A stretch of 64,000 nt of DNA from contig OZ024745.1 of assembly GCA_964016885.1 (NCBI GenBank), positions 45,322,001 to 45,386,000 on the forward strand, given 5' to 3'. The notes beneath the pieces are model-generated. The model was not told the DNA's origin. It saw only the letters and a program-made list of their open reading frames with translations, and searched no databases. Shown here one piece after another: positions 21,368-48,701 of this stretch (position 1 is the first letter of the stretch; each line of letters begins with the position of its first letter). Position numbers and translations under genes: made by a program. Origin of the DNA: Eledone cirrhosa. Lineage: Eukaryota.

Positions 21368-21438
<71 letters not shown>

Positions 21439-21585
21439 GTTATATATATATATGTAGAAGTTCTATTTAAATTGTTTGGATACAACAAGCAAATATTTTT
21501 ATAACTGATATAAAGCACTCAACAAATTATTGGAGTAAAAATACGATATATTAACAAATGGAAACTATATTTATAAAACCATATT

Positions 21586-21650
21586 TATTTCATTATACAT
21601 ATTTCAAGGACACCAAGTTAAATTATGGTGTGCTTTCATCAGATAAAATA
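21586..21650 (-). ncRNA. Type I hammerhead ribozyme motif in a Penelope-like pLTR fragment (family D, element ~21553-21690)
   Basis: Minus: tattttat-CTGATGA-aagcacacca..tggtgtcctt-GAAA-tatgta-TA-atgaaata; homologous to 28725-28785 and 39992-40051. Confidence 0.7.
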
Positions 21651-21819
21651 TAATATAGATCAGTTTTATAAATAAATATTGACATACCCTTAAAGAATGC
21701 GACCATTTCTGTTGGAAGCTCCCGGATAGTGGGGTTATTAAATTTATTTAGTCTATTATGCAAATTAGTGTCGGATATGTTTAAATCACAGTAGATTTAA
21801 AATAAGCCGTTGGGGTATG

Positions 21820-21997
21820 GAAAAAGGGAAAGAAAAGAAAAAGAAAAAAGAGAAAAAAGAGAAAAAAGAGAAAAAAGAGAAAAAAGAGCAAACTCTAAGA
21901 GGAAAATAAGAAAACAAGAAAAAGAGAAAGAGAAAGAGAAAGAGAAAGAGAAGAAAAAAGAAAAGAGAAAAGGAGAAAGAGAATGAGAAAGAGAAAG
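21820..21997. repeat. Polypurine (GAAAAAAGA/GAGAAA)n low-complexity tract
   Basis: Direct reading. Confidence 0.9.
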
Positions 21998-22927
21998 CCC
22001 TAAGTTGTTGTATTAGCGTAACTTTTAAGATGAAGTGAAAAAAAAAAATTTATTGGATGAGTTAGGAAGAGTAAATAAGCGTGAATAGAAAATAAATAAA
22101 TAATAATAACTGGAGAATTTTAACCAGTGTTTAAATATGATTAAATGTTTAGTTTATCAATTAAATTATCAATTAAATTATTTAGATCTATACATTAAAA
22201 TTGAGATCTATATATTATTAAAATCTATATATTATTAAAACTATATATTATTAAAAAATCTATATATTATTAAAAGAATATATTCATATATATAGATACG
22301 CACACATATATATATACATATACACATATATATACATACACATACATATATATACATACAATAAAGGACTTTTTATGTTTAAGATATAGGAATTTTTCTA
22401 AACTTATAGATTTTTCGGAGAAATCGGACAAAAAATCGGAGAAAAATCATTTATATGTAATAGCAAAACAGCGTAAAGGAAATTAAGTTATTTACTTATA
22501 TTAAATGTTATAAATGTTAAGATAATAAAGGAAATTTAAGATTATACAAACCTTATATTATTTAATAGTAATATATCGTATATATATATATTGTTATACT
22601 TGGGGAGGGTCATATTGTAATAATATTGCCAGAAATAATAACAGAAAACACTCAGTGATGTTACCCGACATCCTAAAGCCAAGTAGACGCACAGCCAACA
22701 ACTTCCAACCATCTATCAACGACATACCACCCTTCTATGGGCTCCGCAAAGATAAAAAGCTTTGATAATTTGCCTGGTATAAACAATATTTAAAACTGAA
22801 TTTCACAATAACATTGTAGATAGTGATTTTAAGACGCAATCAATTACATGCTAGACAATGAAACATGTGTAAATGCTTAGAATAAAACCCTACAGTATCG
22901 CTTATCCGTGTTTATCTCCATTCATAC

Positions 22928-22977
<50 letters not shown>

Positions 22978-23599
22978 TGCGTATTTATATAAAAGAGTTT
23001 GTGGAATTGTGAGCACACAGACGTATCAATAAAGAGAACTGTGAGATTTGACAGTTATACGTTCATATTTACTTCCAGCGAAGTCAAAGATATTTTGTTT
23101 GTTTGTTTGAATGCGGAGAAAACAATGTCTATATTGACAAACACACTCCAAGAATGTAATATCACAGCAAACTTATCTTGAGAAAATCAAGTTCTCCTAC
23201 AATCAATGAAACGACTGTCAACACTGTTCCAAACATATATATGTGAGGACGTGCCCCCATGTTGCAAATATAGTTGTATATGTCTGTATGTTTGTCTGTC
23301 TGTCTGTCTGTATGTATATATGTATGTATGCATGTACGTATGCATGTATGTATGGTCGTCTACTTCTTTTTATTTTATAAATTTTCCCCCATAGAGAGAG
23401 AGAGAGCCAGTTTCTAACATAGAGACAAGATTCTTTCATTGGATATTTAGACATTAATTAGGTAAATACATACTTATGTGTTTGTGTGCTTACGTGTGTG
23501 CAGGTATGGTTGTTATTGCATGTGTGGAACTGTATATTTTGAATTATATGTGTACACAGCATATGTTTCTGTATCTATACATGTGCATATGATTTTGTT

Positions 23600-23830
23600 A
23601 CAAGCTGAATTTTTGAAATGTTTAACATAATTCTACAGTTCCATTAATGGATTGTACATGCAATTTCTTGACCAGCCTTTCTCTTTCTGGTTCTGTGAAG
23701 TCCAGTTTCTCAAGATGTGTACCGAGGCAGTTTGTAAATATCCAAGAGCCCCAATCATCACAGGTAGAAATCTAAAACTATAGTCAGGGTGGAGTATGTG
23801 GAGATTCCTCATTAGTTCAGCATAACTGTA
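23600..23830 (-). mobile_element. 3' remnant of a non-LTR retrotransposon with restriction-like endonuclease (R4/Dong-like)
   Basis: Minus translation YAELMRNLHILHPDYSFRFLPVMIGALG, then after a frameshift THLEKLDFTEPERERLVKKLHVQSINGTV; resembles the KY..L...P.vIGALG end of RLE domains (recognised from memory). Confidence 0.65.
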
Positions 23831-23995
23831 TCTATGTATGTGTATATGAAAGTATTTATGGATGTATGTATTTATGAATATACATATGCATACATACACA
23901 TTAATATATAAGTATATATATATGCATATCTATATACAAAAATATTTATATACATGCATACACACATATTTATACATACATACATACATATATAT

Positions 23996-24157
23996 ATAGG
24001 AAAAGCTTTGACCCCGACGGCAGAGCTCAAGCCGTTTCGATGGCTATTTCAGCTCTGGCCGTCGGGGTCATACCTTTTCCTATTACCCACTCTACTACCC
24101 TAAGTATTGAGTACTCTGGTGCGTTATGGTCCATCTGGTTCCTTACCACAATTACTT

Positions 24158-24160
<3 letters not shown>
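23996..24160 (+). mobile_element. Hairpin-headed element (family C) with internally deleted right arm, flanked by (TA)n
   Basis: GACCCCGACGGC..GCCGTCGGGGTC inverted repeat plus tail TACCCACTCTACTACCCTAAGTATTGAGTAC..GGTTCCTTACCACA shared with 29053-29246. Confidence 0.85.
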
Positions 24161-24227
<67 letters not shown>

Positions 24228-24240
24228 TTAATATAGATGA

Positions 24241-24289
24241 GATTCTACAGGACTAGAACTGTTTCATTCATTAGAAATCATCAGGAATC
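24241..24289 (-). ncRNA. Type I hammerhead ribozyme motif with closed stem III
   Basis: Minus: gattc-CTGATGA-tttctaatgaat-GAAA-cag ttctagtc ctg-TA-gaatc; stem I 5 bp, GUA cleavage triplet, U.U mismatch at the base of stem II. Confidence 0.75.
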
Positions 24290-24479
24290 ATATATATATA
24301 TATGTGTGTGTGTGTGTTTCTCCACAGACTTGACATGGTATCTATGGAAACTATTTTCTTCATTTACTTTTATTATGAACATACATACTTTCTTATCCAC
24401 CAGACTGGTGTAGACCTTTCTCTGTCATTATGTTACTCTTTTCTCTCTCTATTTCAGTCTCTCTCATCCTGTCTTTTAA

Positions 24480-24517
<38 letters not shown>

Positions 24518-24582
24518 GTATGTTCATAATAAAAGTAGATAACAAACAGTATCTCTCTCCCTCTCTGTACACACAAACACAT

Positions 24583-24635
<53 letters not shown>

Positions 24636-24636
24636 A

Positions 24637-24815
24637 CGAAGAAAATGTGGTAAGGAACCAGGTGGACCATAACGCACCAAAGTACTCAATACTTAGGGTA
24701 ATAGGAACAAGTAAGACCCCGACGGCTGAGCTCAAGTCGTTTCGACGGCAAATTCTGTCCAGAATTAGCCGTCGAAACGGTTTGAGCTCAGCCGTCGGGG
24801 TCTTACTTGTTCCTA

Positions 24816-24816
<1 letters not shown>
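24637..24816 (-). mobile_element. Hairpin-headed element (family C), reverse orientation
   Basis: Tail 24637-24700, then 57-bp arms 24701-24757 / 24760-24816 with 3 mismatches; (TA)n on both sides. Confidence 0.9.
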
Positions 24817-24850
<34 letters not shown>

Positions 24851-24931
24851 GTGTGTATAATGGTATCTATGGTGCTTCCATAGGCGGTATGCCAAAATTA
24901 GCACTCAATATTCATACAGAGCAGAGTGTGA

Positions 24932-25253
24932 ATAGTATAAAAAACAAAAAAAATCAGTGATGCATCTGGACTCAGTTTATTGCGTGTTACAATTGTTTCG
25001 CCGGCAGGTAGCTCGAGACATGATCACTGTATGGATCTGGCTGATTCTACGGCTGTAGGTTCCTTCAGCCACAGGCAATTCGTTCAGAGCGAAAATTTGC
25101 TCCGAATGAATTGCCTGTGTCTGAAGGAACCTACAGCCGTAGAATCAGCCAGATCCATACAGTGATCATGTCTCGAGCTACCTGCCGGCGAAACAATGGT
25201 AACACGCAATAAACTGAGTCCAGATGCATCACTGATTTTTCGTTTTTTTATAC

Positions 25254-25256
<3 letters not shown>
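24932..25256. repeat. ~325-bp near-perfect palindrome (arms ~160 bp) with hammerhead-like 3' motif; Penelope-like fold-back
   Basis: Arms are reverse complements with about 6-8 differences, centre ~25094; each arm has CTGAAGG...GGC-GAAA-CAATTG(or CAATGG)-TA-ACACGC-AATAAA. Confidence 0.9.
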
Positions 25257-25284
<28 letters not shown>

Positions 25285-25387
25285 TCAGGTTTGAGGTTCA
25301 CCACTGGATAGAGCTGGTCAATTCCGTATGATCATAGTATAATAAACCTTTCAAGGATTTAGACAAACCCAGCCTCCTGTCATTTCA

Positions 25388-25972
<585 letters not shown>

Positions 25973-26126
25973 GGAGGTGAGTTTTATTGTAGTACAATAA
26001 AGCAATGCAGATATCGGATAAGAACCACTCTACAGTTTGTAGGACATATATGTTGATTTAAACATATATGTTGATTTAAAACTGCACTATTCACAAGTGT
26101 ATTTTAACCTTCATATCATGTCTTCC

Positions 26127-26197
26127 TATTTTATCTGATGAAAACACAAATGTTATCGCATGATGATATTTGTTTTTGAAATGCGCATAATAAAATA
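26127..26197 (+). ncRNA. Minimal type I hammerhead ribozyme, intact core
   Basis: tattttat-CTGATGA(26135-41)-~16-bp stem II-GAAA(26178-81)-TGCGCA-TA-ataaaata; perfect 8-bp stem I; predicted cleavage after 26189. Confidence 0.85.
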
Positions 26198-26213
26198 CAT
26201 GGAACTCTTTTAA

Positions 26214-26263
<50 letters not shown>

Positions 26264-26364
26264 TATATATGTGTGACAATGAACGCATACGCATAAACTC
26301 AATGTCAGGCGATGGTTAACTTATTCTATCGATAATTTCACAGTTATTTTTTCTTATATATTTT

Positions 26365-26720
26365 TTCCAGTGGTCGCAACATAGTCGAATACTTAAAGAG
26401 ATCGCTATGCAATCAATAGGACGTTAGGTTGTAGCCCTTTGCGTGGAATGTTTGGCAAATATTAGTCACTATATATTCAGTTCGACCTGTATATCGTGGG
26501 TGGCGGAAATTGAAAGGAATCATATCGAATGGAATGAACGTGCAATTCAAGGGGCCAGCATTGTCACAAACTGTCATAGTTGAATCTCTCTGAATGTTAC
26601 GCTAAGGTTACACAAGTAGTGTAACTGTAGTACTATGCCATTTACAAATTAATTTCACGAGAAGGTGGTTTTATTAATCGTTCATCTAGAACACTCATCG
26701 TTGAAACCGATGAAGGTCCA
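26365..26720 (+). mobile_element. Old degenerate SINE (second family, CORE-like head)
   Basis: Tail ATTCAAGGGGCCAGCATTGTCAC..TACGCTAAGGTTACAC..TTAATTTCACGAG is related to copies at ~53640-53925(-), ~53950-54090(+) and ~55135-55360(-). Confidence 0.55.
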
Positions 26721-26960
26721 TTACCTTGCTTTTCTGCACTTCTACAAATACACATACCACACCATATACATCATAGTGAGATATTTAAATCTTACCTCTC
26801 CCATTGATGCACTCACACATGTATGTTTGAGCAAAACCCTTTTAACATTGATTTCCTATCGATTTTTATTTGAAAAACGTTTTGGTACATACTTATCAAT
26901 ATGTGGTATTTCCGTGATAGAAAAGACAAAAAAAGTTGCACGGGAAAATAACTCCTTGTT

Positions 26961-27040
<80 letters not shown>

Positions 27041-27136
27041 CGTGTGTGTGTGTGCAAATATATAAATATTTGTATACAAATATATAAATATATGTATAAA
27101 TGTATATGTATATATATATATGCATAAGTATATGTA

Positions 27137-27195
<59 letters not shown>

Positions 27196-27243
27196 ATATA
27201 TTTATATGATAATAATGGAGCTGCGGCGCTGCAAATGGGTTAC

Positions 27244-27361
27244 ATATGAAGAAGTTTGTCCTCATCAGTGGCCTTCCAACCGTCGTAGGCATTTGGCCTT
27301 TAATGCGACGAAATGCCTACGACGGTTGGAAGGCCACTGATGAGGATAAACTTTTTCATAT
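27244..27361. repeat. Palindrome with 51-bp arms and 16-nt spacer carrying CTGATGA, abutting (TA)n
   Basis: 27244-27294 vs 27311-27361, 2 mismatches; single-arm relative at ~28985-29027. Confidence 0.9.
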
Positions 27362-27374
27362 ATATTTATATATA

Positions 27375-27425
<51 letters not shown>

Positions 27426-27450
27426 TTATATATATACATATATATATAAA

Positions 27451-27539
27451 ACGAAGGAGGTGTGGTAAGGAACCAAATGGTCCAGAAATAGCCGTCGAAA
27501 CGGCTTGAGCTCTGCCGTCGGTGTTAAGCATTTTCCTAT
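27451..27539 (-). mobile_element. Family C element with one hairpin arm deleted
   Basis: Tail end CGAAGGAGGTGTGGTAAGGAACCAAATGG joined directly to TCCAGAAATAGCCGTCGAAACGGCTTGAGCTCTGCCGTC. Confidence 0.8.
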
Positions 27540-27815
27540 ATATATATATATATGGAAAAAAAAAGGAACGAAATTTCATTTCTTACTCTTAGTACGGCTG
27601 TTACTTAAATATAAGTATGTATACGTACATACATATATGTATACAGACGTACAGTAATATGTATATATATACATACATGCACACACATATATGTACGTAT
27701 GTATTTACCGAACATTTATTATAATGCTCGGTTTGTTTGTAAACAAACATCCCGAATTAAGCTGTACAGTGTTTAGAAACCATCGTTGCCCTTTTGTTCA
27801 ACACTGACAAAGGAA

Positions 27816-27856
27816 CGATGTACTAGTTTCAAGCTTATTAGCTATCGTCAGCACTG
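27816..27856 (-). ncRNA. Minimal type I hammerhead ribozyme motif
   Basis: Minus: cagtg-CTGACGA-t agct aata agct t-GAAA-CTAG-TA-catcg; palindromic stem III; stem I compatible with CpG decay of cggtg/caccg. Confidence 0.7.
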
Positions 27857-27961
27857 TATACCTTCCTGCCAGATGATTGAACCTCTGAAAGTATATACTT
27901 TCCTTATGCATATTAACGGCTGAGCAGCCTAATTTGCATATCGAGTGAGTCATACTTTTTC

Positions 27962-27972
27962 ATATATATCTA

Positions 27973-28052
<80 letters not shown>

Positions 28053-28065
28053 TATATATATATAT

Positions 28066-28104
<39 letters not shown>

Positions 28105-28117
28105 TATATATATATAT

Positions 28118-28174
<57 letters not shown>

Positions 28175-28221
28175 CATACATTATATATATATATATATAC
28201 ATACATTATATATATATATAT

Positions 28222-28320
<99 letters not shown>

Positions 28321-28331
28321 CATATATATAC

Positions 28332-28426
<95 letters not shown>

Positions 28427-28431
28427 CATAC

Positions 28432-28462
<31 letters not shown>

Positions 28463-28512
28463 CATTTATATATATATACATATATATATTTTCTATATAT
28501 ATATACATATAT
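27962..28512. repeat. (TATC)n plus interrupted (TA)n tract
   Basis: Direct reading. Confidence 0.95.
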
Positions 28513-28608
28513 GGGAAAACGTATGACCCCGACGGCAGAGCTCATACCGTTTCGACGGCTATTTCTGAACTGTCCAGAAATAACCGTCGAAACGGCTTGA
28601 GCTCTGCC
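28511..28608. mobile_element. Family C hairpin, right arm truncated
   Basis: GACCCCGACGGCAGAGCTC..TTTCGACGGCTATTTCTG / CAGAAATAACCGTCGAAACGGCTTGAGCTCTGCC. Confidence 0.8.
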
Positions 28609-28648
28609 AGTATGCATGCATATATATGTTAATACATGTATCTACCTG

Positions 28649-28683
<35 letters not shown>

Positions 28684-28724
28684 ATGATATTAATAAATGG
28701 AAACTATATTTATAAAACCATATT

Positions 28725-28785
28725 TATTGTATTATATATATTTCAAGGGTACCAAATCTTTGGTACGCACTCATCAGATAAAATA
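28725..28785 (-). ncRNA. Type I hammerhead ribozyme motif (family D, element ~28690-28853)
   Basis: Minus: tattttat-CTGATGA-gtgc gtaccaaa ga tttggtac cctt-GAAA-TATATA-TA-atacaata. Confidence 0.7.
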
Positions 28786-28850
28786 CAAAGTTTGTTTTAT
28801 AAACAGTGACATACCCAGGAATCAGACCTTAACGGTTCAAGTTCCCTTTA

Positions 28851-28884
<34 letters not shown>

Positions 28885-29023
28885 CATATATATATATATA
28901 TATTCGTGTCCCCTTTATTTACGTGTCCCAACGACTTTTTTTAGCCGTTGCTCGCACCAACCGGAGGTATATTGTCTTTAAAGCAATGATGGTTGGAAGA
29001 TCACTGATGAAGGACTAACTTTA

Positions 29024-29052
<29 letters not shown>

Positions 29053-29057
<5 letters not shown>

Positions 29058-29246
29058 AACGAGTAGGACCCCGACGGCTGAGCTCAAGCCGTTTCGACGG
29101 CTAATTCTGGACTCAGAATTAGCCGTCGAAACGGCTTGAGCTCAGCCGTCGGGGTCCTACTCGTTCCTATTACCCACTCTACTACCCTAAGTATTGAGTA
29201 CTTTGGTGCGTTATGGTCCACCTGGTTCCTTACCACATTTCCTTCG
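29053..29246 (+). mobile_element. Hairpin-headed element (family C), best copy: perfect 57-bp inverted repeat plus 76-bp tail between (TA)n tracts
   Basis: 29053-29109 is the exact reverse complement of 29114-29170 (loop GACT); the arm contains GAAACGGC-ttgagctca-GCCGTC-ggggtc, i.e. hammerhead GAAA, stem III and GUC. Confidence 0.92.
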
Positions 29247-29980
29247 ATATATATATATATATAATAAGCGTGGCTGTTGGAATAAGTTGGGGAGTTCGAA
29301 TAAGCAGTGAGGTGTGGGTCGGTAATTTTCCTAAGTTGTTTCCGTTGAGTATTTTAAAAAACGAAAATTATTCGTTTAGTTTACATATTGAGACCTCAAC
29401 CCATTCTATTTATTTTATAACGTAAGAGATTTCTAGAAAAGTTTTTTTTTTGTCATGTATAATGTTTTTAATGTCTAAAGAAAATTAAATGCGGCAGGAA
29501 TGCTACCACTTAAAATAATATTTCGCCGGAGATAGATTAGCACAATTTAATAATTGCTGGAATAAGAGTAACGGGGTTGAACAAATCTGAAAAATTAATA
29601 AGAGGTGGGGAGGGACGATTATTCGAGATCCGAGAGTATATATAAACATATATAATATGTATACACATATATATATATCCATGTATATATATTCACACGC
29701 ACGCACACACACACATACACACACACACACACATATATATGTGATGTGATTTTGACGGACGGGAGAATTGGTTCTCAATACCGAAATAGAATTTAAATAT
29801 TCATTATTATAGCTAAGTAATGAGTATTTGTTACTCAGGAGAGTAGCAAACACACATCATACCAGACTTATCTGCAGCAATAAGATTTCTTTGAAGTTCT
29901 AAACCTGTTTTGACTCTGGCTAAAACAATTGCTATGCTATCGAGAGCAAAAGCCAGCCATTACTTTTAGTGATCTTCCAA

Positions 29981-30167
29981 GGGCGGTGGATTGGCAGTAT
30001 AGGTAGAGGGTCGGATGCCATGCTTTGACGCATAGAGTTACAGCCCTTGCCATTCTGAGTTCAAATCCCGCCGAGGTTAACTTTGCCTTTCATCCTTACT
30101 GGGTCGATAAAATAAAGTACCAGTAATACACTGGGTAATTGCTGGTCTTGTGCCTAACGTAGAAACA
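29981..30167 (+). mobile_element. Full-length tRNA-derived SINE with TSD
   Basis: A-box-like TGGCAGTATAGG, B-box GAGTTCAAATCC; direct repeat ATTACTTTTAGTGA at 29959 and 30168. Confidence 0.93.
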
Positions 30168-30189
30168 ATTACTTTTAGTGAGTCTCCTA

Positions 30190-31330
30190 GGTATTAGAGG
30201 GAGTTAATTTCCTCAGTACCCTTACTGTTGACTACTTCTCTTCACCTATCGCATATAAAGTCTTCCTTCTTTGCCAGCCTATCTATGATCCCATTATATC
30301 TCTTGTGTTAACCGTACACACGAGGTACACCATATGGGATTGCTACCTTCTCAGCAAATTTAACAATCTGATGGTAGCAGAGTCCTATCCTCTTTCCTAC
30401 CTACTAAAACTTTAATCTTTGCTAGGCTTACTCTGAAGTCCTTTGAATCTAGATTGTGTTTCCATGGAACGTCTACTCCAATTTTGCACTAGATCAATGA
30501 GCACTAGATCATCAGCATACATGAGTTTCCAGAGACACCCAGTCTTGAATTCTTTTGTAAAGGGGCTTATTCTTAGCTAAGCACTTCTTGAGTTATCTCA
30601 GTACGAAGATGGCATCAGTGGTGTTTCTCCCCAACATAAAGCCAAACTGCATCTCATTAAGTTTAATGTTATTCTTAATCAACCTTGCTGTCACTTTTTC
30701 TGTATCCTTCATAAGCCGATTTAACAATTTGATGCTTGTGCAATTGTTTCTTTCTAGTGTGTCTTGTTTACCATTATAGTTGAAAAGGAGTCTAATATGG
30801 CTGGTTTACTATACGGATTACTAGTCCGTGTCCTCCTACGCCAGATAGTTTAACCAAATCAGCGACAATCCACATACCTTCATTGCTTGAATCACTTTAT
30901 CTACCACACTGCTCTCAACTTTGATAGCTGGTCCCTAAGTTGGGTTTATTTTTGACAGACTCTCATTTAACAGCCTTAGGTAGAAGCAATTCCATACATC
31001 CTTCTTTACTGCTTCAGTATAGGTACGTGAGCCACAGCCATTTTTACATACATTTTTACCGTCACGTCCTGGTTTTCTCTTGTACACTGACTTACGATAC
31101 GAATAACTTCGTGTCTCTGATCCTTGTGTTGCAGAACATTGGCAAACTTCTTACTTTCTGCCTGCCTTCTTGCTTAATAAACCTGGCACCTATCTTTCTT
31201 CAAGCTACGTGGTATTTTTCCTTGCTATTCCTCGCTTTGCAGTCTTTCCAAATCTGTCTCTTGGCTTTCAGGGCCCCATCTACAGTACTGTCCCACCACC
31301 ATGTCACCTTCATTCTGGCTGGTACCTTTT
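30190..31330 (-). mobile_element. Degenerate RTE-clade LINE, RT region
   Basis: Minus: TWWWDSTVDGALKAKRQIWK (~31300), EMQFGFMLGRNTTDAIFVLR (~30650), KEFKTGCLWKLMYADDLVL (YADD 30508-30519); many stops and deletions. Confidence 0.85.
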
Positions 31331-32184
31331 TCAATCTATAGAACCCGCTCCAAATCTCACATGTTTAAAATGAATTAAAAATTTAGGCTTGTTATTCAAA
31401 TATAACATTTTCAATATAATTAGATATGCTATTTTTCTCTTCATAATATTTTTTTAAAAGTATGAGTGGTCACGAGACTGAGTGACGTATAAATACATAT
31501 ACATAAATACACACACATGTACATGCGCATATACATACATACACATACACGCACATACACACATATATATAGTATATATATATAGTATATATATATAGTA
31601 TATATATATAGTATATATATAGTATATATATATATATATACTATATAGATTTTCCAAGAGAGAGTAAAACGCATTTTGGTTTTAAAATCACCAACACCAA
31701 ACACAGCCAACATCAAAACCACCACCAACACCATCAACACGACCAGTAGCAACATCACCACCACCACCACAAATACCATCAACACTACCAACGCAATTTA
31801 CACCTGGTAGTGGTGGAGTTAATAGTAATCATGGTGTTAGTGTTAGTGATGATATTGGTGGTGTTGGTGTTACTGATTTTTAAAGTAAAATCTGTTCTGG
31901 TATCTAATAGACAATTTTCACTTTTCATTGGAAATTTCTAATTTTAACTGAAAAGTGGTATATAAGATTCGTTTGTTATGTTAGAAATACCACTTTAACG
32001 CTGAAACCTTTAGTTAATCCTTTCAAAGTTTTAAGTAAATGAAATACAATGTGTTTTATTATAAATAAGGACATGAAAGGATTAAGCTGAATATTTCAAA
32101 TCTGTTGTTATCTTTACAGTGAACTTCCATATAGCAGCTTTACAATTATGTTTATATTTACCTATATGCTGAAACAACAGCAGT

Positions 32185-32360
<176 letters not shown>

Positions 32361-32449
32361 GAAAAGTGAAGGAGAGAGAGAGAGAGAGAGAGAGACAGGG
32401 AGCGAAGAAGAGAGAAAATATATATAGATATATATAGAGAGCGAGCGAA

Positions 32450-32499
<50 letters not shown>

Positions 32500-32639
32500 G
32501 GGGAGAGAGAGAGTGTGGGAGAGTGTGTGTGTGAAATAGCATAATACTAATGTTGATATAGAAAGTAAATAAGGATGACTACTTGCAGTTGTGTTGGAAT
32601 GGCGAGGATGTAAGTGATTTTGATTACATGCTGTTGCGT

Positions 32640-32810
32640 ATGATGGGGATGATGATGATGATGATGATGATGATGAAAATAAAGATGATGACGATGGTGA
32701 TGGTTTATGAGTATGATGATAATGATGACGATGAGGTTGATGATGTTGATGATGGTAATGTTGATGATCATGATGATAGAAATGATGCTTACAATGATGC
32801 TAATGGTGAC
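32640..32810. repeat. Degenerate (GAT)n tract
   Basis: Direct reading. Confidence 0.85.
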
Positions 32811-33158
32811 TGTTTACGGAAGGTAATAGGTAGGCGGCAAGTACATCAATAATACTTGGTATGTAGCCTGAAACTAATTGTAGTAGGTGTGTATAAGATC
32901 GTCCAAATGTTAAATAAATTCCCGCTGTGAAATTTTGTTCATTTGCCAAACAATTTAAAGATATTTAAACTCGCCAATGTACATTGAGTCGTTATTTCCT
33001 TTATTCATCTTCATCAAACTATACTCAGCCTTTTGTAAAGAAATGTAGTGAATATTTTCCAACAGAAATATGTTTTGAAGTGTTTATTAATTGTTATAAG
33101 GATGAAAGTTCTGTAAATAAATAACAATGAATTACCTTCATTATATATAAAACAGTAT

Positions 33159-33342
33159 GGCGGTAGATTGGCAGTATCGGTAGAGGGTCGGACGCCATGC
33201 TTTCCAGCATAGTTACGTCCCTTTACGATCTGAGTTCAAATCCCGCCGAGGTTGACTTTACCTTTCATCCTTACGGGGTCGATAAAATAAAGTACCAGTA
33301 ATGCACTGGGTAATTGCTGGCCTTGTGCCTAAAGTAGAAACA
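33159..33342 (+). mobile_element. Full-length tRNA-derived SINE (first of tandem pair)
   Basis: Family consensus; flanked by ATTATATATAAAACAGTAT at 33140 and 33343. Confidence 0.93.
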
Positions 33343-33361
33343 ATTATATATAAAACAGTAT

Positions 33362-33548
33362 GGCGGTGGATTGGCAGTATCGGTAGAGGGTCGGACGCCA
33401 TGCTTTGACGCATAGAGTTACGGCCCTTGCCATTCTGAGTTCAAATCCCGCCGAAGTTAACTTTGCCTTTCATCCTTACAGGGTCGATAACATAAAGTAC
33501 CAGTAATACACTGGGATAATTGCTGGCCTTTTGCCAAAAGTAGAAACA
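33362..33548 (+). mobile_element. Full-length tRNA-derived SINE (second of tandem pair)
   Basis: Family consensus; followed by a third repeat copy ATTATATATAGAACAGTAT at 33549. Confidence 0.93.
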
Positions 33549-33678
33549 ATTATATATAGAACAGTATAGTGAAGCTTTGTGAGAATGAAATTAATGATAA
33601 GATGTACAGAAAGTTGGAAAGTGGGTACAATGTGAAGAAAATATAATGAAGAAATACATTGCGTTAAAAGGCATAATA

Positions 33679-33850
<172 letters not shown>

Positions 33851-33985
33851 AATCGGATGGATTCAGTTTAAAACTGTTTAGATCATTACTCAACAGAGTA
33901 CAGGATAGTTGGGGTAGTAGAGTATGGTTTCGTTATAACTAGCTGCTGAAACGGCAAGGGCTCGGCCGTCGGGTCCCGACTCTTT
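33851..33985 (-). mobile_element. Diverged relative of family C, collapsed hairpin
   Basis: GGGGTAGTAGAGT (reverse complement of the family tail) then GAAACGGC-aagggctcg-GCCGTC-gggtc at 33948-33975. Confidence 0.6.
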
Positions 33986-33999
33986 ATAATATATATATA

Positions 34000-34078
34000 C
34001 AGGGTGTCCCAAAATATGTATACACACTTCAACACCATTCTAATCAAAATGTGTGCACATTTTTTGGGGAGAACCCTG
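34000..34078. mobile_element. 79-bp Tc1/mariner-type MITE
   Basis: TA|CAGGGTGTCCCAAAATATGTATACAC ... GTGTGCACATTTTTTGGGGAGAACCCTG|TA. Confidence 0.75.
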
Positions 34079-35798
34079 TATATATATTAGCGCCCAGGCA
34101 TACAAGAAAGACGTGGCTCGATTCCTTGTGTGTGCCTCTGTCAACTTTTTCTCGTCTATAGGGATACTTTACCTGATTTATGAAGCCATAATAAATTTAA
34201 TGTAGGTATAATTACTGGTTTTTCGATTGAGCATAAGCTTTCGCTGGGAAAAGAATGATTAACTCAAAAGTCTTTCAACAATTCCTCCTTGCATATAAAA
34301 ACAAAAAAATTTACCCCATGCTGCATTTCAGAGAGCTTTGAAAAGACAACTACCCTTATGAAATTGTTCATGGAGAAACACAGGGGAAATTAAAAGTAGT
34401 GTATAAGTAAATAGCTCGCAAGCTATGGAATACGAAGTATGGGATAGGAAGGGTAATCTCTCCTGGATATTCGATAGTTACATCCCAACTCACCTGGCCG
34501 GATGCAGCATCACTATTCAGGAACAAGAGATAGTCACTAAATATTTGATCAATAACAGAGACTCCAAACCCCACATTGTAATATAAAATGTTGATTCATC
34601 CATACCAATATGCCTTTTAACAATCCCATCAAAAGTAGCTGCCCCAAAATACTTGGCAATCATTCCGTAAGTAGACTAGAATTAATATGGATCTACACTT
34701 TTAAAAATAAAGAATAATGGTGGAAAATTCCAGTATAAATAACACAAAAAAACAAAACAAAACAAAACAAATCCAGTACAAACACAACATACCTCTTATA
34801 GTTCCCAGGGATATGGGTCAAAGATCAAAAGTTATGAACTGTTGTAGGTCAGCTGTCCTAGAGAATATGGAATTACTATATAAGACAGCAAAAAAGAAAA
34901 TAACTATGAGGAATACATGTAGACCTTGTATCCTGATATAGACTTTCGTACCTAATATATCAGTTACACTGAGATACATAACAATATATTTGCATAAGGA
35001 AACGCCGGAATTTTCCAGGAAACACCAAACCAAATTGAGTTACATCCTCGAAATCCAATCAATTAGTACTGTGAAGATTTGCAAGACATTCCAATGAATC
35101 TCCATAGGTGTTTTCCAGAATAAATATATGTTGACAACCACAAGGAACTATCTTAATTAAATAACAAAAACAAAGACACCTTGTCATCTTGTTAATAATC
35201 ACCGTGAATTCCACAAATGCGAGTGTTGAGTTTTCAATCGATGCCGATTCACGTCTCCCCCACGTATTTATACTTAGGTACTAGAAAATACCACGCACAC
35301 CAAATAAAATATTTGAATACCACGGATTCCATTCTCTGGCCACCGATATCTTTTAACTATTTTCTCTTGGATTCTGCTCTACAAACTCAATGCATTTCTT
35401 ATTATTTCTCTTCTTTCCCTATATGTGGGCCCTCCAACAGCTCGCTCACTAACATTTTCATAGACTAAATTTATCTCTCTTATCTCTAAAATTATCTCTC
35501 TTATCAATTGTCAAATTATATTCCTTGCTATTCTTTTAACGCTATATCTAAAACAGCCATCCATATATATTTCTTACTCTTTCATCATTGCTTTTGGAAC
35601 TCTTTCACGTTTGAAGGAAAAGAACACATCCATTACAAAATAAAATTAATAGAGGCTGAAGAACTAGAATCTTTCTCGGTGAAAGTCTGACACCATAGCT
35701 ATTGTAATACATATCTATACATTATAATCTCTTTCTATAGATTGAGTTCTCTCTCAAATTTGGATATTACTTACCAAATTACGCTATATATACATACA

Positions 35799-35880
<82 letters not shown>

Positions 35881-35882
<2 letters not shown>

Positions 35883-36020
35883 GCGGCGAATTGGCAGTCG
35901 ATAGAGTGTTTTGCGAAATTCGTTTCGGTTCTTTGCTCTCTACGTACAAATCCCACTGATGTTAACTTTGCCTTCCATCCTTTCGAGTACCAGTCGCGTA
36001 CTGAGGTCGATTCTTCCTCT
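35881..36020 (+). mobile_element. Degenerate SINE
   Basis: GCGGCGAATTGGCAG..CAAATCCC..GTTAACTTTGCCTTCCATCCTTTCG. Confidence 0.7.
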
Positions 36021-36172
36021 ATATCTCTATCTCACTTCCATTTTCTCACTCTTTATCCTTAGATGGGAGAAATCTATTGTATGCAGACCTGGGCTCAGTC
36101 AGGTTTTTAAAAATGCCCTAGAAACACTGTATATCAATGCGGCGCCCCAACGACTCTCTCAGAAGTTACGGG

Positions 36173-36237
<65 letters not shown>

Positions 36238-36308
36238 GCATGCATATGTAAATATATGTATGTATATTTATATGTATCTATACATGTGTTTATATGAGTA
36301 TGTATATG

Positions 36309-36438
36309 CAGCTTTTCTCTATATCTAAGTGTACATATGTTAAGTGGTCTTTTTGGTCACGATTATACCCGCATACATACATTCAAACATACATACATAC
36401 ATATATGCATATCTACACATGTATACTCACATACACAT

Positions 36439-36501
<63 letters not shown>

Positions 36502-36635
36502 TATATATATACATACATGTGTGTATGTAAATATTTATATAAACACATACACACATGTATGTATGTGAGTGCGGGTATAGTTTGTGACCAAAAGGACCAC
36601 TTAACATATGTACACTTAGATATAGAGAAAAGCTG
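36309..36635. mobile_element. MITE-like element, ~65-bp inverted termini enclosing a CA/TA/TG microsatellite
   Basis: CAGCTTTTCTCTATATCTAAGTGTACATATGTTAAGTGGTC.. (36309-36374) is the reverse complement of 36570-36635; no clear TSD. Confidence 0.7.
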
Positions 36636-36944
36636 GGTTTTGCTTTGAATTTTGTTTTGTTGTGTATTCCTTAACTTTATATTTCCTCTTATATTCTTTG
36701 TTGTTATTTCTGATAGAATAAAGATTTGTGTCAAGATATCTTCTACTATTTTAAAGAGCATGTCTCTGCTAGAACTATCAGGTGTCTCTTGTAACATTCC
36801 ATCGAGGTCTTTGGAATCAGATTTTCTACGCTCACGGCTGCTGTGAATCATCGTCTTAATAGAAGCAACAGTTAGGAATACTTGTCTCATTTCTTTAGAA
36901 AATTGCACTCCTCGCCTTGCTTCTTTCTCTTCATCTAAGAAGCG

Positions 36945-36980
<36 letters not shown>

Positions 36981-37291
36981 GTTCCTTTTCTTTCTTTCCT
37001 TCTCGAAATGTCTGTCTATTTATATAAGGTGCCTGAAAAACATCGAAGACTATTTTGATTTTGTATTATTCTGCAAACTATTAAGACATTCTTTATTTAT
37101 GTATTTATCCTTTTATTCTTTGGATGAAAGGATAAATGCCATAAATGTTTGCTGGAGGCGTTTTATCTTTATTAGTGTTACGGCGATATTGAGCTGAGAA
37201 AGGTTTTCAAACTTTAAACTGTGAACCTCGATGTGCAATACCGATGGTCCAATTATAGTGAAGTGTTGCTGTTATTATTGGCACCGCTAGA

Positions 37292-37488
37292 GGACGGTGG
37301 ATTGATATCTGTAGAGGGTCGGACATCATGCTTTGCGGCATTTAGTTACAGTCTTTTAGATTCTGAGTTCAAATCTCGCCGAGGTTACCTTTACTTTTCA
37401 TCCTTACGGGGTCGATAACTCATTAGGATCGATTTAATCGATTTCCTCTCCTCCCCCAAAGTGTTGGCTTTGTGCCTAAATCAGAAAC
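37292..37488 (+). mobile_element. tRNA-derived SINE, longer/older subfamily
   Basis: Family body plus GATCGATTTAATCGA..CTCCCCCAAA segment; TATTATTGGCAC repeated on both flanks. Confidence 0.85.
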
Positions 37489-37550
37489 TATTATTGGCAC
37501 GACGAGTGGTTAGGTTAATGGATTTAGGATCATGATGTCGTAAGTTCAAT

Positions 37551-38452
37551 CCCTCTCTCTATATCTACTACACAGAACTCTCTTCCAAACCCTCTCTCTA
37601 TATCTACTACACAGAACTCTCTTCCAAACCCTCTCTCTATATCTACTACACAGAACTCTCTTCCAAACCCTCTCTCTATATCTACTACACGGAACTCTCT
37701 TCCAAACCCTCTCTCTATATCTACTACACGGAACTCTCTTCCAAATCCTCTCTATATATCTACTACATAGAACTCTTTCCCAAACCTTCTCTCTCTATAT
37801 CTACTACACGGAACCCTCTTCCAAATCCTCTCTACATATCTACTACACAGAACTCTCTTCCAAACCCTCTCTCTATATCTACTACACGGAACTCTCTTCC
37901 AAACCCTCTCTCTATATCTACTACACGGAACTCTCTTCCAAATCCTCTCTATATATCTACTACATAGAACTCTTTCCCAAACCTTCTCTCTCTATATCTA
38001 CTACACGGAACCCTCTTCCAAATCCTCTCTACATATCTACTACACAGAACTCTCTTCCAAACCCTCTCTCTATATCTACTACACAGAACTCTCTTCCAAA
38101 CCCTCTCTCTATATCTACTACACGGAACTCTCTTCCAAACCCTCTCTCTATATCTACTACACGGAACTCTCTTCCAAATCCTCTCTATATATCTACTACA
38201 TAGAACTCTTTCCCAAACCTTCTCTCTCTATATCTACTACACGGAACCCTCTTCCAAATCCTCTCTACATATCTACTACACGGAACTCTCTTCCAAACCC
38301 TCTCTCTATATCTACTACACGGAACTCTCTTCCAAATCCTCTCTCTATATCAATTAACACGAAGCTCTCCCCCCTCTCTATATCGCTCCCAACCCTCCTC
38401 GCTATATTAATTACCACCAAATTCTCCCCCTCTCTATATCTATCAATACCTA
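37551..38452. repeat. 39-bp minisatellite CCCTCTCTCTATATCTACTACACRGAACTCTCTTCCAAA (~20 units, degenerate after ~38345)
   Basis: Units start at 37551, 37590 etc.; a variant block recurs at ~37763, 37961 and 38197. Confidence 0.95.
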
Positions 38453-38625
38453 TCTCCAGTATACTCAGCTAAAAATCGTTACCAGCAGTAGGTGCGGATT
38501 CACCCTGCGATGAACTGGCATCCTGTCCAGTGGGGGAGTTTTGTGCTCGCAGTCGCCTGTTGCCAAGGAAACCAGGATGAATACTGACCTAATGAGCCTC
38601 TCAGCTTCAGACAGACTTTACATTT
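38453..38625 (+). mobile_element. 3' half of a different SINE (CCCTGCGATGAACTGGCATCCTGTCCAG, V-domain-like)
   Basis: Motif recognised from animal SINE bodies; tRNA-like head at 37495-37553 on the other side of the minisatellite. Confidence 0.65.
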
Positions 38626-38725
38626 GTTTTTAACATCGTTGCAAATTCTGAAATATATTGAGAGACCTTTCTTTATCTTGAACTTGTGGTTTCTGCTGCT
38701 GCAGTTATAGTTGCTGTTGACGATG

Positions 38726-38726
<1 letters not shown>

Positions 38727-38756
<30 letters not shown>

Positions 38757-38777
38757 CTTCTTCGTCTTCTTCTTCTT
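38727..38777. repeat. (TTC)n microsatellite
   Basis: Direct reading. Confidence 0.95.
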
Positions 38778-39597
38778 AATATAAATGTTATTGGAAGAGA
38801 AGAGTTCATATCCTACGCTGGTCATGTTGAAATATTTTATAATCCCAATGATCTAAGTACAACGTTGTTCCATGTTTCTCTGCATCTTGCCATGCGTTGA
38901 CATCGACGACTCGGATCTTACTGGTACTATCACGTACATATAGTCAGATACAAAGTTGCCAGTTAGTCCCTTTATACATCATGTTAGTCTACTTCACCAT
39001 GAAGTTGCATTCTAATTGAATGATATCTATTGCTTATGAAATATAGGCGGCAATTTTGCAGAATTGCAAAAATGTTTCATAGGATACTTTACAGTATTCA
39101 CTTCGACATTTTGCTCTCCGAGTTCAAATCGCGCCAATGTCAAATGCGACCAATGTATTTTTATACGTTCAAACAGGGCCAATGTCTTGTCATACTTTCG
39201 ATGTAAATAAATAAAGCACTCGTTCAGTGCCTCTATAGCTCATATTCATTTTATCACTCTATCTCTTTCTCTCTCACACTTCTCTCTCAAACATTCTTAT
39301 ATTTTCATTCCCTCAGAAAATAGAAAGGTGATGACGATAGTATTATTACACTAAATGTTAAGGTAGAAACCAGCGCCTAGATAAACGCAAATGAAAAGTA
39401 GAGAAAGAGAAATTATGATAGAAAACACGTTTTACTTCTTTATTTAAGGAGATATTAAAAAATACAAATATGAAAAGAAATAGTTTGAGAACAATTTTAC
39501 TGAACCAACTTCACCAGGACATTATTGCTGACTCATAATAGATTTCCACGATTTCTATTCCAGCTTTTGCCCCGTCATCTAGCCCCCCCTCTCTCTC

Positions 39598-39712
39598 TAT
39601 ATATATATATAATATATATATGTGTGTGTATATATATATATATATGTATATATATGTGTATATATATGTATATATATATGTGTGTATATGTATATATAAA
39701 TATATATATATG

Positions 39713-39743
<31 letters not shown>

Positions 39744-39797
39744 GTATAAATATATGTATATATATATGATATATATGTATATATATGTATATATATG

Positions 39798-39828
<31 letters not shown>

Positions 39829-39869
39829 GTATATATATGTATATATATATATATATGTATGTATATATA

Positions 39870-39946
<77 letters not shown>

Positions 39947-39961
39947 TATATATATATATAT
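39598..39961. repeat. (TA)n/(TG) compound microsatellite
   Basis: Direct reading. Confidence 0.95.
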
Positions 39962-39991
39962 AAATGGAAACTATATTTATAAAACCATATT

Positions 39992-40051
39992 TATTCTATT
40001 ATATATATTTCAAGGGTACCAAAACTTGGTACGCTATCATCAGATAAAATA
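39992..40051 (-). ncRNA. Type I hammerhead ribozyme motif (family D, element ~39961-40117)
   Basis: Minus: tattttat-CTGATGA-tagc gtaccaa gtt ttggtac cctt-GAAA-TATATA-TA-atagaata. Confidence 0.7.
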
Positions 40052-40137
40052 CGAATTGTGTTTTATAAATTTTGACATAACCAAGGAAAATATACCTTAA
40101 CGGTTCAAGTTTTCCTTATATATATAAATATATACAT

Positions 40138-40169
<32 letters not shown>

Positions 40170-40319
40170 GATTGCGCGCATGTGTGTGTGTATGCACATT
40201 TAAGAGACACATACATATATATATATATATATGTAAAAGGTAAACAGAAATAATAACACAATCGGTACAGTATATGGAAGGTATATTTTAGGTTAACGCT
40301 TGATATAACAGGAAGAGGG

Positions 40320-40355
40320 TCTTAACATTTCGGATGCTAGTCCTTCATCAGAAGA
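40320..40355 (-). ncRNA. Minimal Penelope-type hammerhead motif
   Basis: Minus: tctt-CTGATGA-a gga ctagca tcc-GAAA-tg-TT-aaga; AATGTT is one CpG transition from palindromic AACGTT. Confidence 0.7.
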
Positions 40356-40715
40356 AAGAATGAGAAATACGATAGATTGAGGGAACGGGCAGGGTTGGAA
40401 TTGGAAAAAAATGTCTTTAGATAAAAATAACAGGTCCCTTCATGTTGACATCTCTTGTATGGATAACTATATATATGTGCATGTGTATGTGTGTGTGTAT
40501 ATGTCTGTGCGCGTATGTTCCCACCCACATATACATGAGTATATATTAAACTGCAGCCATGCAGCTTCAATCGACGACATCAAACCCAGAAGTCATTTCA
40601 TTCTGATACTTAATTTATTGATCCCTGCTTGTCAAAATACTAGTTTACATATCCTGACGACATAGAACATAAACACAGACAGATTGACACGCATTCAAAC
40701 ACATATACATACATA

Positions 40716-40836
40716 CAAGGGGCGGTGGAACTGGGCAGGAGGACCATGGCCCCACCAATAATCATATTTTTCTCCCCAAACTACCAAAACACACATCTAT
40801 TTGTATATGCGCTACAATTTATGTACATGTTATGTA
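40716..40836 (+). mobile_element. Truncated copy of the hAT-like MITE at 47309-47533
   Basis: Shares ATATTTTTCTCCCCAAACTA..ATATGCGCTACAATTTATGTACATGTTATGT with ~47345-47413. Confidence 0.65.
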
Positions 40837-40839
40837 GAG

Positions 40840-40964
40840 ACAGATGGGAGGTATAGATATAGAGAGGGGGAGAGTTAGGTAGTAATTGATATAGAGAGGA
40901 AGGTTGGGAGAGTGTGTTGTATATTAGATACAGAGAGGGGAAGAGATTGATGTTTATTGATATA
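40840..40964 (-). repeat. GA-rich minisatellite related (reverse strand) to 37551-38452; left flank of the LINE
   Basis: GATATAGAGAGGGGGAGAG..GTAATTGATATAGAGAGG units. Confidence 0.75.
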
Positions 40965-41205
40965 TATTTCTATTTATTTGCCACCAGGGCATCAAAGATT
41001 GGGACAAATACAAAGGGGGGAGTTTACATACATTTAAAAAGACGTGTAAAAAACATATAACAAATTAAATTTAACAATCGAAGTCCTCAATAGGGAGGGG
41101 CGTTGACATGGGTCGCACACACCCCCGAAAAAATGTGCAACCCTCCTCTTCAGGAGCACAAAGAGCGGGTGCTTCCTTCCTCTTCTCATTCTTCTCCTCT
41201 CTCAC

Positions 41206-44085: not shown

Positions 44086-44587
44086 AGTCGGAAAATCCAG
44101 TCGATATCTATCGGCCAGATCAAATCGGCCGATTAATCGTTTGAGGCTGTTACACCCCCTCTATCGGGACATGACCCTACATAGTCCCAACGTGCATCCA
44201 GGATACCATTCCAGTCCCCCACTAAAAGCAAGGAGCGAGACATTCCCAGGAAATTCTCCAGGCGTCGGAAGAAGTCCGGTCGCGGTGTCCCCGATGGGGC
44301 ATACGCTGCCACCAGCCTGAAAGCTCCACCTTCACCACTGCCGACGTCTAAAACCACCAGTCGACCCTCCGGGTCCAGGTGTACCTTCTGTGTGGCAAAA
44401 CCCAGGTATTTTCGCAGATCCCAAAGTCGTCGAAGATGAGGGCCAGTTGGCGCTCGCTGCTGATCCTGGACTCGCAAATAACCATTACACCCACTCTGTG
44501 CGACCTGAGGTCATTTAAGAGTTTGCCCTGTTTCCAGGACATCCCCAAGCCGCGTGCATTCACACATCCAACTCTTATATTGGCCAT
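44086..44587 (-). pseudogene. ORF2 N-terminal AP endonuclease, split by two frameshifts
   Basis: MANIRVGCVNARGL..VICESR / DPEGRLVVLDV..AAYAP..LLVGDWN; shifts at ~44420 (probable deletion) and at the G5 run 44155-44159. Confidence 0.85.
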
Positions 44588-46404: not shown

Positions 46405-46578
46405 TGCCAGCAAGTCTACAGTTTTTAGATGAAAATTAAAAATTTCGCCCCAGAGAGGGGCTTAACGTCTGACGGCCAAGGCAAGGGGCTAAACCAAACA
46501 ATGTTATTAAATTGATCAATAAACTCACAGTCTTTTTGACAACAATCCGTAAAAATCCGGAGCAAAGTAAATCACGTC

Positions 46579-46968: not shown

Positions 46969-47037
46969 TGACAAATTAATAAACGGGGTGTGGGGACCTG
47001 AGAGCAGGTGAATTATTGATGGACCGAAGTAGAGTTT

Positions 47038-47179
47038 AAATATTCATTTATTATGGCTAAGCTTTGCTACTCTGGAGTCTCCCCTACGTACTCATCAGGC
47101 AAGACTTGTGATCCTGAGAGTCCGCAGGTGAAACTTTAGAGTAACAAAGCTCACCAATTGCCATAATAAATCAATATTT
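47038..47179. repeat. Degenerate fold-back palindrome with a hammerhead motif in each arm
   Basis: Left arm minus: ttgc-CTGATGA-gtacgtaggg-GAGA-ctccagag-TA-gcaa; right arm plus: CTGA-GA-gtccgcaggt-GAAA-ctttagag-TA-acaa; related fragment at ~29780-29850. Confidence 0.65.

Positions 47180-48466: not shown

Positions 48467-48530
<64 letters not shown>

Positions 48531-48668: not shown

Positions 48669-48701
<33 letters not shown>

Follow-up and report, generated by a model that had tools for sequence, protein, structure and literature searches.

The window, by which we mean the whole 64,000-nt stretch of DNA analysed here, is AT-rich eukaryotic DNA, probably from an octopus to judge by its SINEs and microsatellites, with short repeats, densely spaced (TA)n and (CA)n tracts and a satellite of 20 kb. 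On its + strand, positions 26127–26197 are a type I hammerhead motif. The motif lies near the 3′ end of a short non-coding element, which sits between two (TA)n tracts. The features of the locus are:

25400–25969, no strand: upstream (TA)n tract, read from the sequence
25970–26218, + strand: short non-coding repeat element of 249 nt, flanked by (TA)4+ tracts; family contigs cover 25980–26210
26044–26079, + strand: 18-nt tandem duplication, particular to the window copy; most members have about 50 other nucleotides there
26117–26204, + strand: stem I possibly prolonged outwards across a bulge, by either 26117–26120/26198–26201 (0.29) or 26123–26126/26201–26204 (about 0.55)
26127–26134, + strand: 5′ strand of stem I, 8/8 pairs with 26190–26197; the family variant A26128G gives a G–U pair
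26135–26141, + strand: catalytic core C3-U4-G5-A6-N7-G8-A9, read from the sequence (C3 = 26135, A9 = 26141)
26142–26177, + strand: stem II, with three A–U pairs, a C–U mismatch, a 12-pair helix and a 4-nt loop (26158–26161)
26178–26181, + strand: core G12-A13-A14-A15.1 (G12 = 26178, A15.1 = 26181); no variant listed among family contigs
26181–26188, + strand: palindromic stem III of 8 nt, AUGCGCAU, spanning A15.1 and U16.1 (26188); intermolecular pairing predicted
26189, + strand: H17 = A in hammerhead numbering; predicted cut 3′ of A26189, triplet AUA
26190–26197, + strand: 3′ strand of stem I, pairing with 26127–26134
26219–26270, no strand: downstream (TA)n tract, likely the insertion target

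The core is intact at 13 of 13 positions, as the preliminary description had claimed. Its perfect 8-bp stem I was also recovered: all eight pairs between 26127–26134 and 26190–26197 are Watson–Crick, and every one is A–U. The cut that it predicted after A26189 agrees with the hammerhead numbering. Stem II had been given as ~16 bp. It does extend over 16 positions, but the two strands (26142–26157 and 26162–26177) form 15 pairs, two of which are G–U, and a C–U mismatch at 26145/26174. The stem opens with an A–U pair (A26142–U26177), and the usual G10.1–C11.1 is absent; an A>G change at 26142 (position 10.1) occurs as a minor variant among the family contigs. Pair probabilities are 0.92–1.0 for the 12 distal pairs and about 0.5 for the three basal pairs. 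Stem III, described earlier as the palindrome UGCGCA, is palindromic, but the palindrome is 8 nt long (AUGCGCAU) and includes A15.1 and U16.1. The (TA)n tract, expected ~20 nt beyond the motif, starts 21–22 nt past stem I and 29 nt past the predicted cut site. Variation at 26122–26124 favours 26117–26120/26198–26201 as the outer extension of stem I.

A descriptor scan found six hammerhead motifs in the window, of which only the focal motif passed the strictest thresholds. The control consisted of local dinucleotide shuffles (n = 300) of a 40-kb microsatellite-masked region. At the loosest thresholds one of 300 shuffles contained a match, compared with the six real motifs, and at the two stricter levels, the focal thresholds included, none of the 300 did. 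Folding of the 86-nt motif has a z-score of −2.19. The anatomy and the shuffle test together support the hammerhead assignment made before.

Rfam gave no hammerhead match at gathering score over the whole window. At E≤10, positions 26100–26215 produced 11 weak matches with no hammerhead family among them, and for 20000–64000 no hammerhead was present among the 150 listed of 344 matches; those listed were mostly microRNA models on simple repeats. By inspection, the Rfam hammerhead families have the same core and topology as the focal motif (the type I model is RF00163), yet none of them matched it at gathering score or at E≤10. Scans of metagenome contigs, viral contigs and prokaryotic genomes with the motif pattern returned no matches, as expected for an animal repeat.

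Three of the other hammerheads in the window belong to one related group, family D:

21586–21650, − strand: family D copy 1, related hammerhead (C3 = 21642, H17 = 21594)
28725–28785, − strand: family D copy 2, related hammerhead (C3 = 28777, H17 = 28733)
39992–40051, − strand: family D copy 3, related hammerhead (C3 = 40043, H17 = 40000)

Stems II and III of family D had been called completely different from those of the focal motif. They are not. Through the base of stem II, the focal motif and copy 1 are identical at 21 of 22 nucleotides. All four motifs (the focal one and the three copies) have a C–pyrimidine mismatch at stem II position 4. Stem III of family D is the same alternating palindrome with transitions, AUAUAUAU in two copies and AUAUGUAU in one. 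The natural covariation claimed on the same grounds was not borne out either. Two-sided changes affect none of the eight pairs of stem I and two pairs of stem III, and the latter number is reached by 63 of 500 shuffles. Across stems I and III, 47 of 48 cells pair when compared with the three family D copies. The distal part of stem II in family D has another length and sequence than in the focal motif, yet it pairs in each copy; it cannot be aligned with the focal motif pair by pair.

Family D copies 2 and 3 (28685–28852 and 39963–40118, minus strand) have nearly the same start and end positions and measure 154–172 nt. Their matching ends hint at a fixed-length non-autonomous element. An outer 10-pair helix prolongs stem I across an internal loop. 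Pairing between the element ends is reached by 5 of 500 shuffles for copy 2 and by 92 of 500 for copy 3, the latter being within chance.

Contigs that align to the focal element allowed the fold to be compared within its own family. Variants were counted over 26117–26210 if they reached at least 5% in at least one of four runs. The resulting list has 16 variants, of which nine are in stems, one is in the core and two are in loop II; the remaining four lie in unpaired sequence 5′ of stem I. It has no row for 26169–26210, and absence there is no proof of invariance. The one core variant at this threshold is T26139C at N7, which is the free position of the hammerhead core; the other 12 of 13 core positions have no listed variant. 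Pairing is preserved in nine of nine stem variants when they are read as + strand, as against two of nine as − strand. Eight of the nine fall in stem II, all of them compatible with pairing. If the variants were independent, P would be 0.002 (46 stem positions), 0.006 (30 positions up to 26168) or 0.009 (seven variants from one run). Those at 26146, 26149, 26152 and 26154 co-occur on one haplotype (loose end at 26145), so these values overstate the evidence. All nine stem variants are one-sided, and editing of a double-stranded RNA could likewise account for the six that are A>G. Variation across the family is compatible with the fold. On these sequences the fold is supported, and more by the family variants than by the covariation argument from family D.

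Further loose ends of contigs at 26145, 26167 and 26169–26170 mark haplotypes of subfamilies whose stem II differs in sequence but retains its pairing. In one of them the 3′ base of stem II is rich in C and U16.1 seems to be changed, its same-molecule partners not being visible.

How the motif might act was approached by predicting its folding as a monomer and as a dimer, with all dimer energies being nearest-neighbour predictions. In the monomer, stem III would consist of two pairs closing a GCGC loop, at +4.7 kcal/mol and with a pairing probability of 0.0. The self-duplex of the focal palindrome is calculated at −10.5 kcal/mol. The lowest-energy homodimer has −37.9 kcal/mol compared with −25.8 kcal/mol for two monomers, which is a gain of −12.1 kcal/mol, and in it the palindrome pairs 8/8 between the molecules. 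The double hammerhead, when scored explicitly, has −37.3 kcal/mol. The focal motif is thus predicted to act through paired copies, as a double hammerhead, and not as a single unit. The call for a dimer test in the preliminary description was justified. A dimer model of hammerheads and the freedom of N7 are both described in the literature (PMC6765202, PMC6155905, PMC2837043). The motif had earlier been singled out as the best-preserved single hammerhead. Its stem lengths and the strength of its dimer agree with that rank, but "single" does not fit a monomer in which stem III is predicted not to form. With the family D palindromes the focal palindrome pairs weakly (−1.6 to +1.7 kcal/mol), and in all nine other pairings among the focal and family D motifs a shared stem III is absent from the lowest-energy dimer.

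The whole 250-nt element folds well (z −3.8). Within it, the probability that stem I forms is 0.02, and that of the three basal pairs of stem II drops from about 0.5 in the motif alone to about 0.1, so the register after A9 may shift. An "anti-ribozyme" switch, in which 26012–26023 would pair with 26129–26140, was considered and rejected as unproven. Shuffled 5′ arms mask stem I in 50 of 150 cases and reach the energy in 16 of 150, and the duplex energy is reached by 57 of 1000 shuffles. Since shuffled arms mask stem I a third of the time, we read its being outcompeted in the predicted fold of the whole element as weakness of an all-A–U stem, not as a switch.

The element at 25970–26218 is a multi-copy repeat family. 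Sequence comparison finds one copy of it within the window, and 2,812, 226, 30 and 21 contigs from four of six listed runs (three studies, three organisms) align to it. The runs are of unrecorded kind, and contig depth gives no copy number. In two runs the depth rises towards the hammerhead, a measure that cannot rank the parts of the element. Three or all four of the runs have contigs with loose ends at 26045 and 26066. Given these ends and the roughly 50 other nucleotides that most members carry there, a family unit of about 280 nt is likely, compared with ~250 nt for the window copy. A 15-nt near-direct repeat on both sides of the hammerhead (26102–26116/26209–26223) was set aside: it runs into the TA tract, and a rough estimate by hand puts it at chance level. 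Five of the six hammerhead motifs in the window sit 21–91 nt ahead of a (TA)n tract, and the sixth sits 140 nt ahead.

Hammerheads are present in the terminal repeats of Penelope-like elements (PLEs), with thousands of single dispersed copies per genome (PMC4209133). Among them, atypical forms with a small, palindromic helix III are described from Drosophila virilis, D. willistoni, Aedes, Marsupenaeus and rotifers (Cervera and de la Pena 2014, PMC4209133). The focal motif shares with these the type I topology, an intact core, a palindromic helix III that requires a dimer, a helix II larger than usual, AU-rich flanks and the occurrence mostly as single dispersed copies (PMC4209133). Precedents for A–U as the pair that opens stem II, or for a cut at AUA, come from D. 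willistoni and Marsupenaeus (PMC4209133, Fig. S3 text); our literature search found no data on AUA as a cleavage triplet. The focal motif differs from these atypical forms in its 8-pair all-A–U stem I and in having no G10.1–C11.1, and its stem II of 16 positions, with the C–pyrimidine mismatch at position 4, compares with about 3–8 pairs in the PLE hammerheads listed in PMC4209133. It deviates from the PLE minimal consensus given there in the missing G10.1–C11.1, the lack of a clear unpaired base after A9 and the much longer stem II. With a helix II of 16 positions, it also lies outside the canonical fast type I form, which has helices of about 6 and 4 pairs and a loop 1–loop 2 contact (sizes from PMC4209133).

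Hydra-clade PLEs, Hydra-1_oBim of Octopus bimaculoides among them, have (TA)n targets and bear a hammerhead on the sense strand, about 90–210 nt from the 3′ end (Craig et al. 2021, PMC8557442, files S1/S2). The sense-strand type I hammerhead near the 3′ end, the (TA)n target and the likely host group are common to these elements and the focal one. Stem III in the Hydra clade mostly has 3–4 pairs and a 1–3 nt loop, whereas the focal motif has an alternating 8-nt palindrome, and the hammerhead of Hydra-1_oBim differs in sequence from the focal motif (PMC8557442). Two focal strings that were sought in the supplement of PMC8557442 gave no matches each. Ribozymes of this kind have been described before, one of them from an octopus; modest new details are the two palindrome versions and a long stem II whose mismatch is fixed.

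From these likenesses we infer a PLE origin of the element. Partial tandem pLTRs, 5′ truncation, an inverted 5′ copy and a 30–40 nt tail are among the hallmarks of PLEs; for these the comparison covered the one copy in the window, and contig ends at the (TA)n tracts were skipped. The element shows a sense-strand hammerhead near its 3′ end and insertion in (TA)n with no clear target duplication, which is a PLE trait. Judged by its sequence it is classed as PLE-type and not as a PLE, since a reading frame with a PLE reverse transcriptase and GIY-YIG is absent from it. A Pfam scan found neither domain among 148 of 190 stop-free stretches of the window, and no PLE domain in the read-through frames of 26270–26960, 30150–31380, 34080–35790 and 55000–63600; coverage of 21430–22290, 22360–25400, 28500–30150, 38400–41200 and 46500–55000 came from stop-free stretches of at least 50 aa. 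Octopus vulgaris has abundant PLEs, some of them recent (PMC13282606), and the main texts of two papers that report their abundance in octopuses make no mention of ribozymes (PMC13282606, PMC8967140).

Our main reading, to which we assign a probability of about 0.7, is that the motif is a type I hammerhead close to the 3′ end of a short repeat that has many copies and lies in a TA microsatellite, that this repeat is likely a pLTR or a non-autonomous PLE derivative, and that cleavage after A26189 is predicted to occur only as a dimer. An RNA of the family would be copied into (TA)n by the reverse transcriptase/endonuclease of an autonomous PLE, giving a short insert that ends 29 nt past the cut site. 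Two palindromes, in tandem or on a second transcript, would form an 8-pair shared stem III and so a double hammerhead, whose cleavage, probably slow, would shorten the RNA of the element. The lone copy in the window would be cut only in trans with another RNA of the family, or not at all, because it has no same-strand partner in the window. Published PLE inserts are mostly 5′-truncated and have a single terminal repeat, and dimer elements of Xenopus did not cleave in eight of nine cases tested and cleaved in one of nine (bioRxiv 10.64898/2026.07.22.740005). Where the helix III of a PLE hammerhead is small and palindromic, activity is weak even in dimers (PMC4209133). Insertion of an anole PLE in vitro did not need hammerhead cleavage (PMC11167929).

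It is possible, though we lean against it, that the fold is real while the window copy and most copies of the family are catalytically silent relics. The bias towards A>G would then reflect A-to-I editing of double-stranded element RNA before reverse transcription, and not selection for cleavage. A-to-I editing is strong in octopuses. The A>G changes in 6/9 stem variants fit this explanation, as do the all-A–U stem I that is outcompeted in the full element and the missing G10.1–C11.1; published PLE hammerheads, moreover, are often weak or silent (PMC4209133, 10.64898/2026.07.22.740005). Against silence stand the 12 core positions that are free of variants at 5% or more, the three stem variants other than A>G, which are likewise compatible with pairing, and the core and palindrome that are kept between two subfamilies otherwise differing. 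Editing would itself require the same + strand fold.

We consider it unlikely that the element is a dispersed monomer of a non-LTR retrozyme, in which case tandem arrays elsewhere would give a ~280-nt circular RNA by successive hammerhead cuts and the window copy would be a reinserted unit. Non-LTR retrozymes are tandem units of 170–400 nt that are expressed as circles (Cervera and de la Pena 2020, PMC7229834). Like them, the focal element is a repeat that is short, AT-rich and non-coding and contains a type I hammerhead, and its 249 nt fall within this range (PMC7229834). Its good overall fold is also in favour. A palindromic, dimer-dependent helix III is known from axolotl and newt retrozymes, and solo monomers are common in some retrozyme families (10.64898/2026.07.22.740005). 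As retrozymes are thought to derive from pLTRs (Li, Clavereau and Pollet 2026, 10.64898/2026.07.22.740005), this explanation differs from the PLE one mainly in the tandem and circle steps. At the locus, however, there is one copy and no head-to-tail tandem array. No joint of a 3′ to a 5′ end was present among the 15 listed of 16 joints, which is a weak argument as the contigs are short and their ends were skipped as repeats. The focal motif also lacks the 6-bp and 4-bp helix sizes of canonical retrozyme hammerheads (PMC4209133).

A bolder version of the PLE-type reading seems improbable to us. The ~280-nt family would be a discrete ribozyme SINE with fixed ends that PLE proteins move, RNAs of its dispersed copies would pair through stem III and cut in trans, and the palindrome would serve as a family-specific pairing code, at −10.5 kcal/mol with itself but −1.6 to +1.7 kcal/mol with the family D forms. 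At six motifs in 44 kb, ribozymes in the octopus genome might then number on the order of 100,000 and be capable of cutting the host transcripts in which they lie, with stems under the influence of A-to-I editing.

Very little speaks for an efficient stand-alone ribozyme that cleaves as a monomer and has been co-opted for processing a host transcript: stems I and II are long and an outer extension of stem I is possible, but the monomer has a stem III of two pairs at +4.7 kcal/mol and probability 0.0, the motif is in one of many repeat copies with a private duplication upstream, and no host exon was recognised nearby in the scanned frames. Hardly credible at all is a chance match in AT-rich DNA, or the hairpin of a TA-targeting DNA transposon (MITE), since, for all the AT-richness, the many foldback repeats and the TA flanks, none of 300 shuffles reaches the focal thresholds, the G–U compatibility is strand-specific, and the end-to-end complementarity of the element, reached in 105 of 500 shuffles, is not beyond chance.

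The PLE-type reading would add one dimer-dependent lineage that Rfam misses, with an 8-pair AU stem I, a long stem II with a fixed C–pyrimidine mismatch and an alternating 8-nt palindrome. The literature on hammerheads, Penelope-like elements and octopus transposable elements yielded no description of this ribozyme family; Repbase, Dfam or Lunse et al. 2017 may hold it. Specialists would count on finding such motifs in an animal genome rich in PLEs, and membership of the published class of PLE hammerheads makes the finding less surprising. A multi-copy family with GCGC and AUAU palindromes bears on whether PLE hammerheads cut in trans and whether the palindrome sets the choice of partner.

The six hammerhead motifs of the window are of at least three kinds, and all lie within 21400–40400. 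Over the 44 kb of 20200–64000 this is about one per 7 kb, a density that, coming from one window, is no genome-wide figure. The two motifs outside the focal element and family D are both on the minus strand. The one at 24226–24290 (C3 = 24284, H17 = 24246) is a 65-nt piece bounded by (TA)n tracts. It has a 5-pair stem I, a 3-pair stem II behind a U–U mismatch and a 4-pair stem III with an 8-nt loop. It resembles the Hydra-clade hammerheads more closely than the focal motif does (PMC8557442), and it could be foldable as a monomer. The other lies on a 236-nt island bounded by TA tracts (40235–40470; C3 = 40351, H17 = 40324) and is a classic PLE minimal hammerhead, with an extra A after the core, a G–C first pair, a 4-pair stem I and a 4-nt near-palindrome.

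The remainder of the window holds repeats of several sorts. The satellite occupies positions 1–20150 (about 20 kb) and is CA-rich with extreme strand skew (GC skew about −0.97). A nearly intact LINE lies at about 41.1–46.5 kb, which we take to be of L1/Tx1 type; its open frame of 984 aa (41206–44160, minus strand) matches RVT_1 (E 1.9e-25) and zf-RVT. Decayed frames at 34080–35790 on the minus strand recall a Ty3/Gypsy-type integrase by eye, and Pfam matches none of them. In a foldback repeat at 27241–27364 and 28988–29034, the arms end in a CUGAUGA half-core just 5′ of (TA)n, without the closing GAAA. The repeat could represent the inverted end of a PLE that carries a truncated or a different ribozyme. 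Long near-perfect inverted repeats lie between TA tracts at 24690–24815, 24960–25240 and 29040–29250, some of which form one family with 24000–24160, 27450–27540 and 28510–28610. Their layout recalls the 5′ inversions of PLEs.
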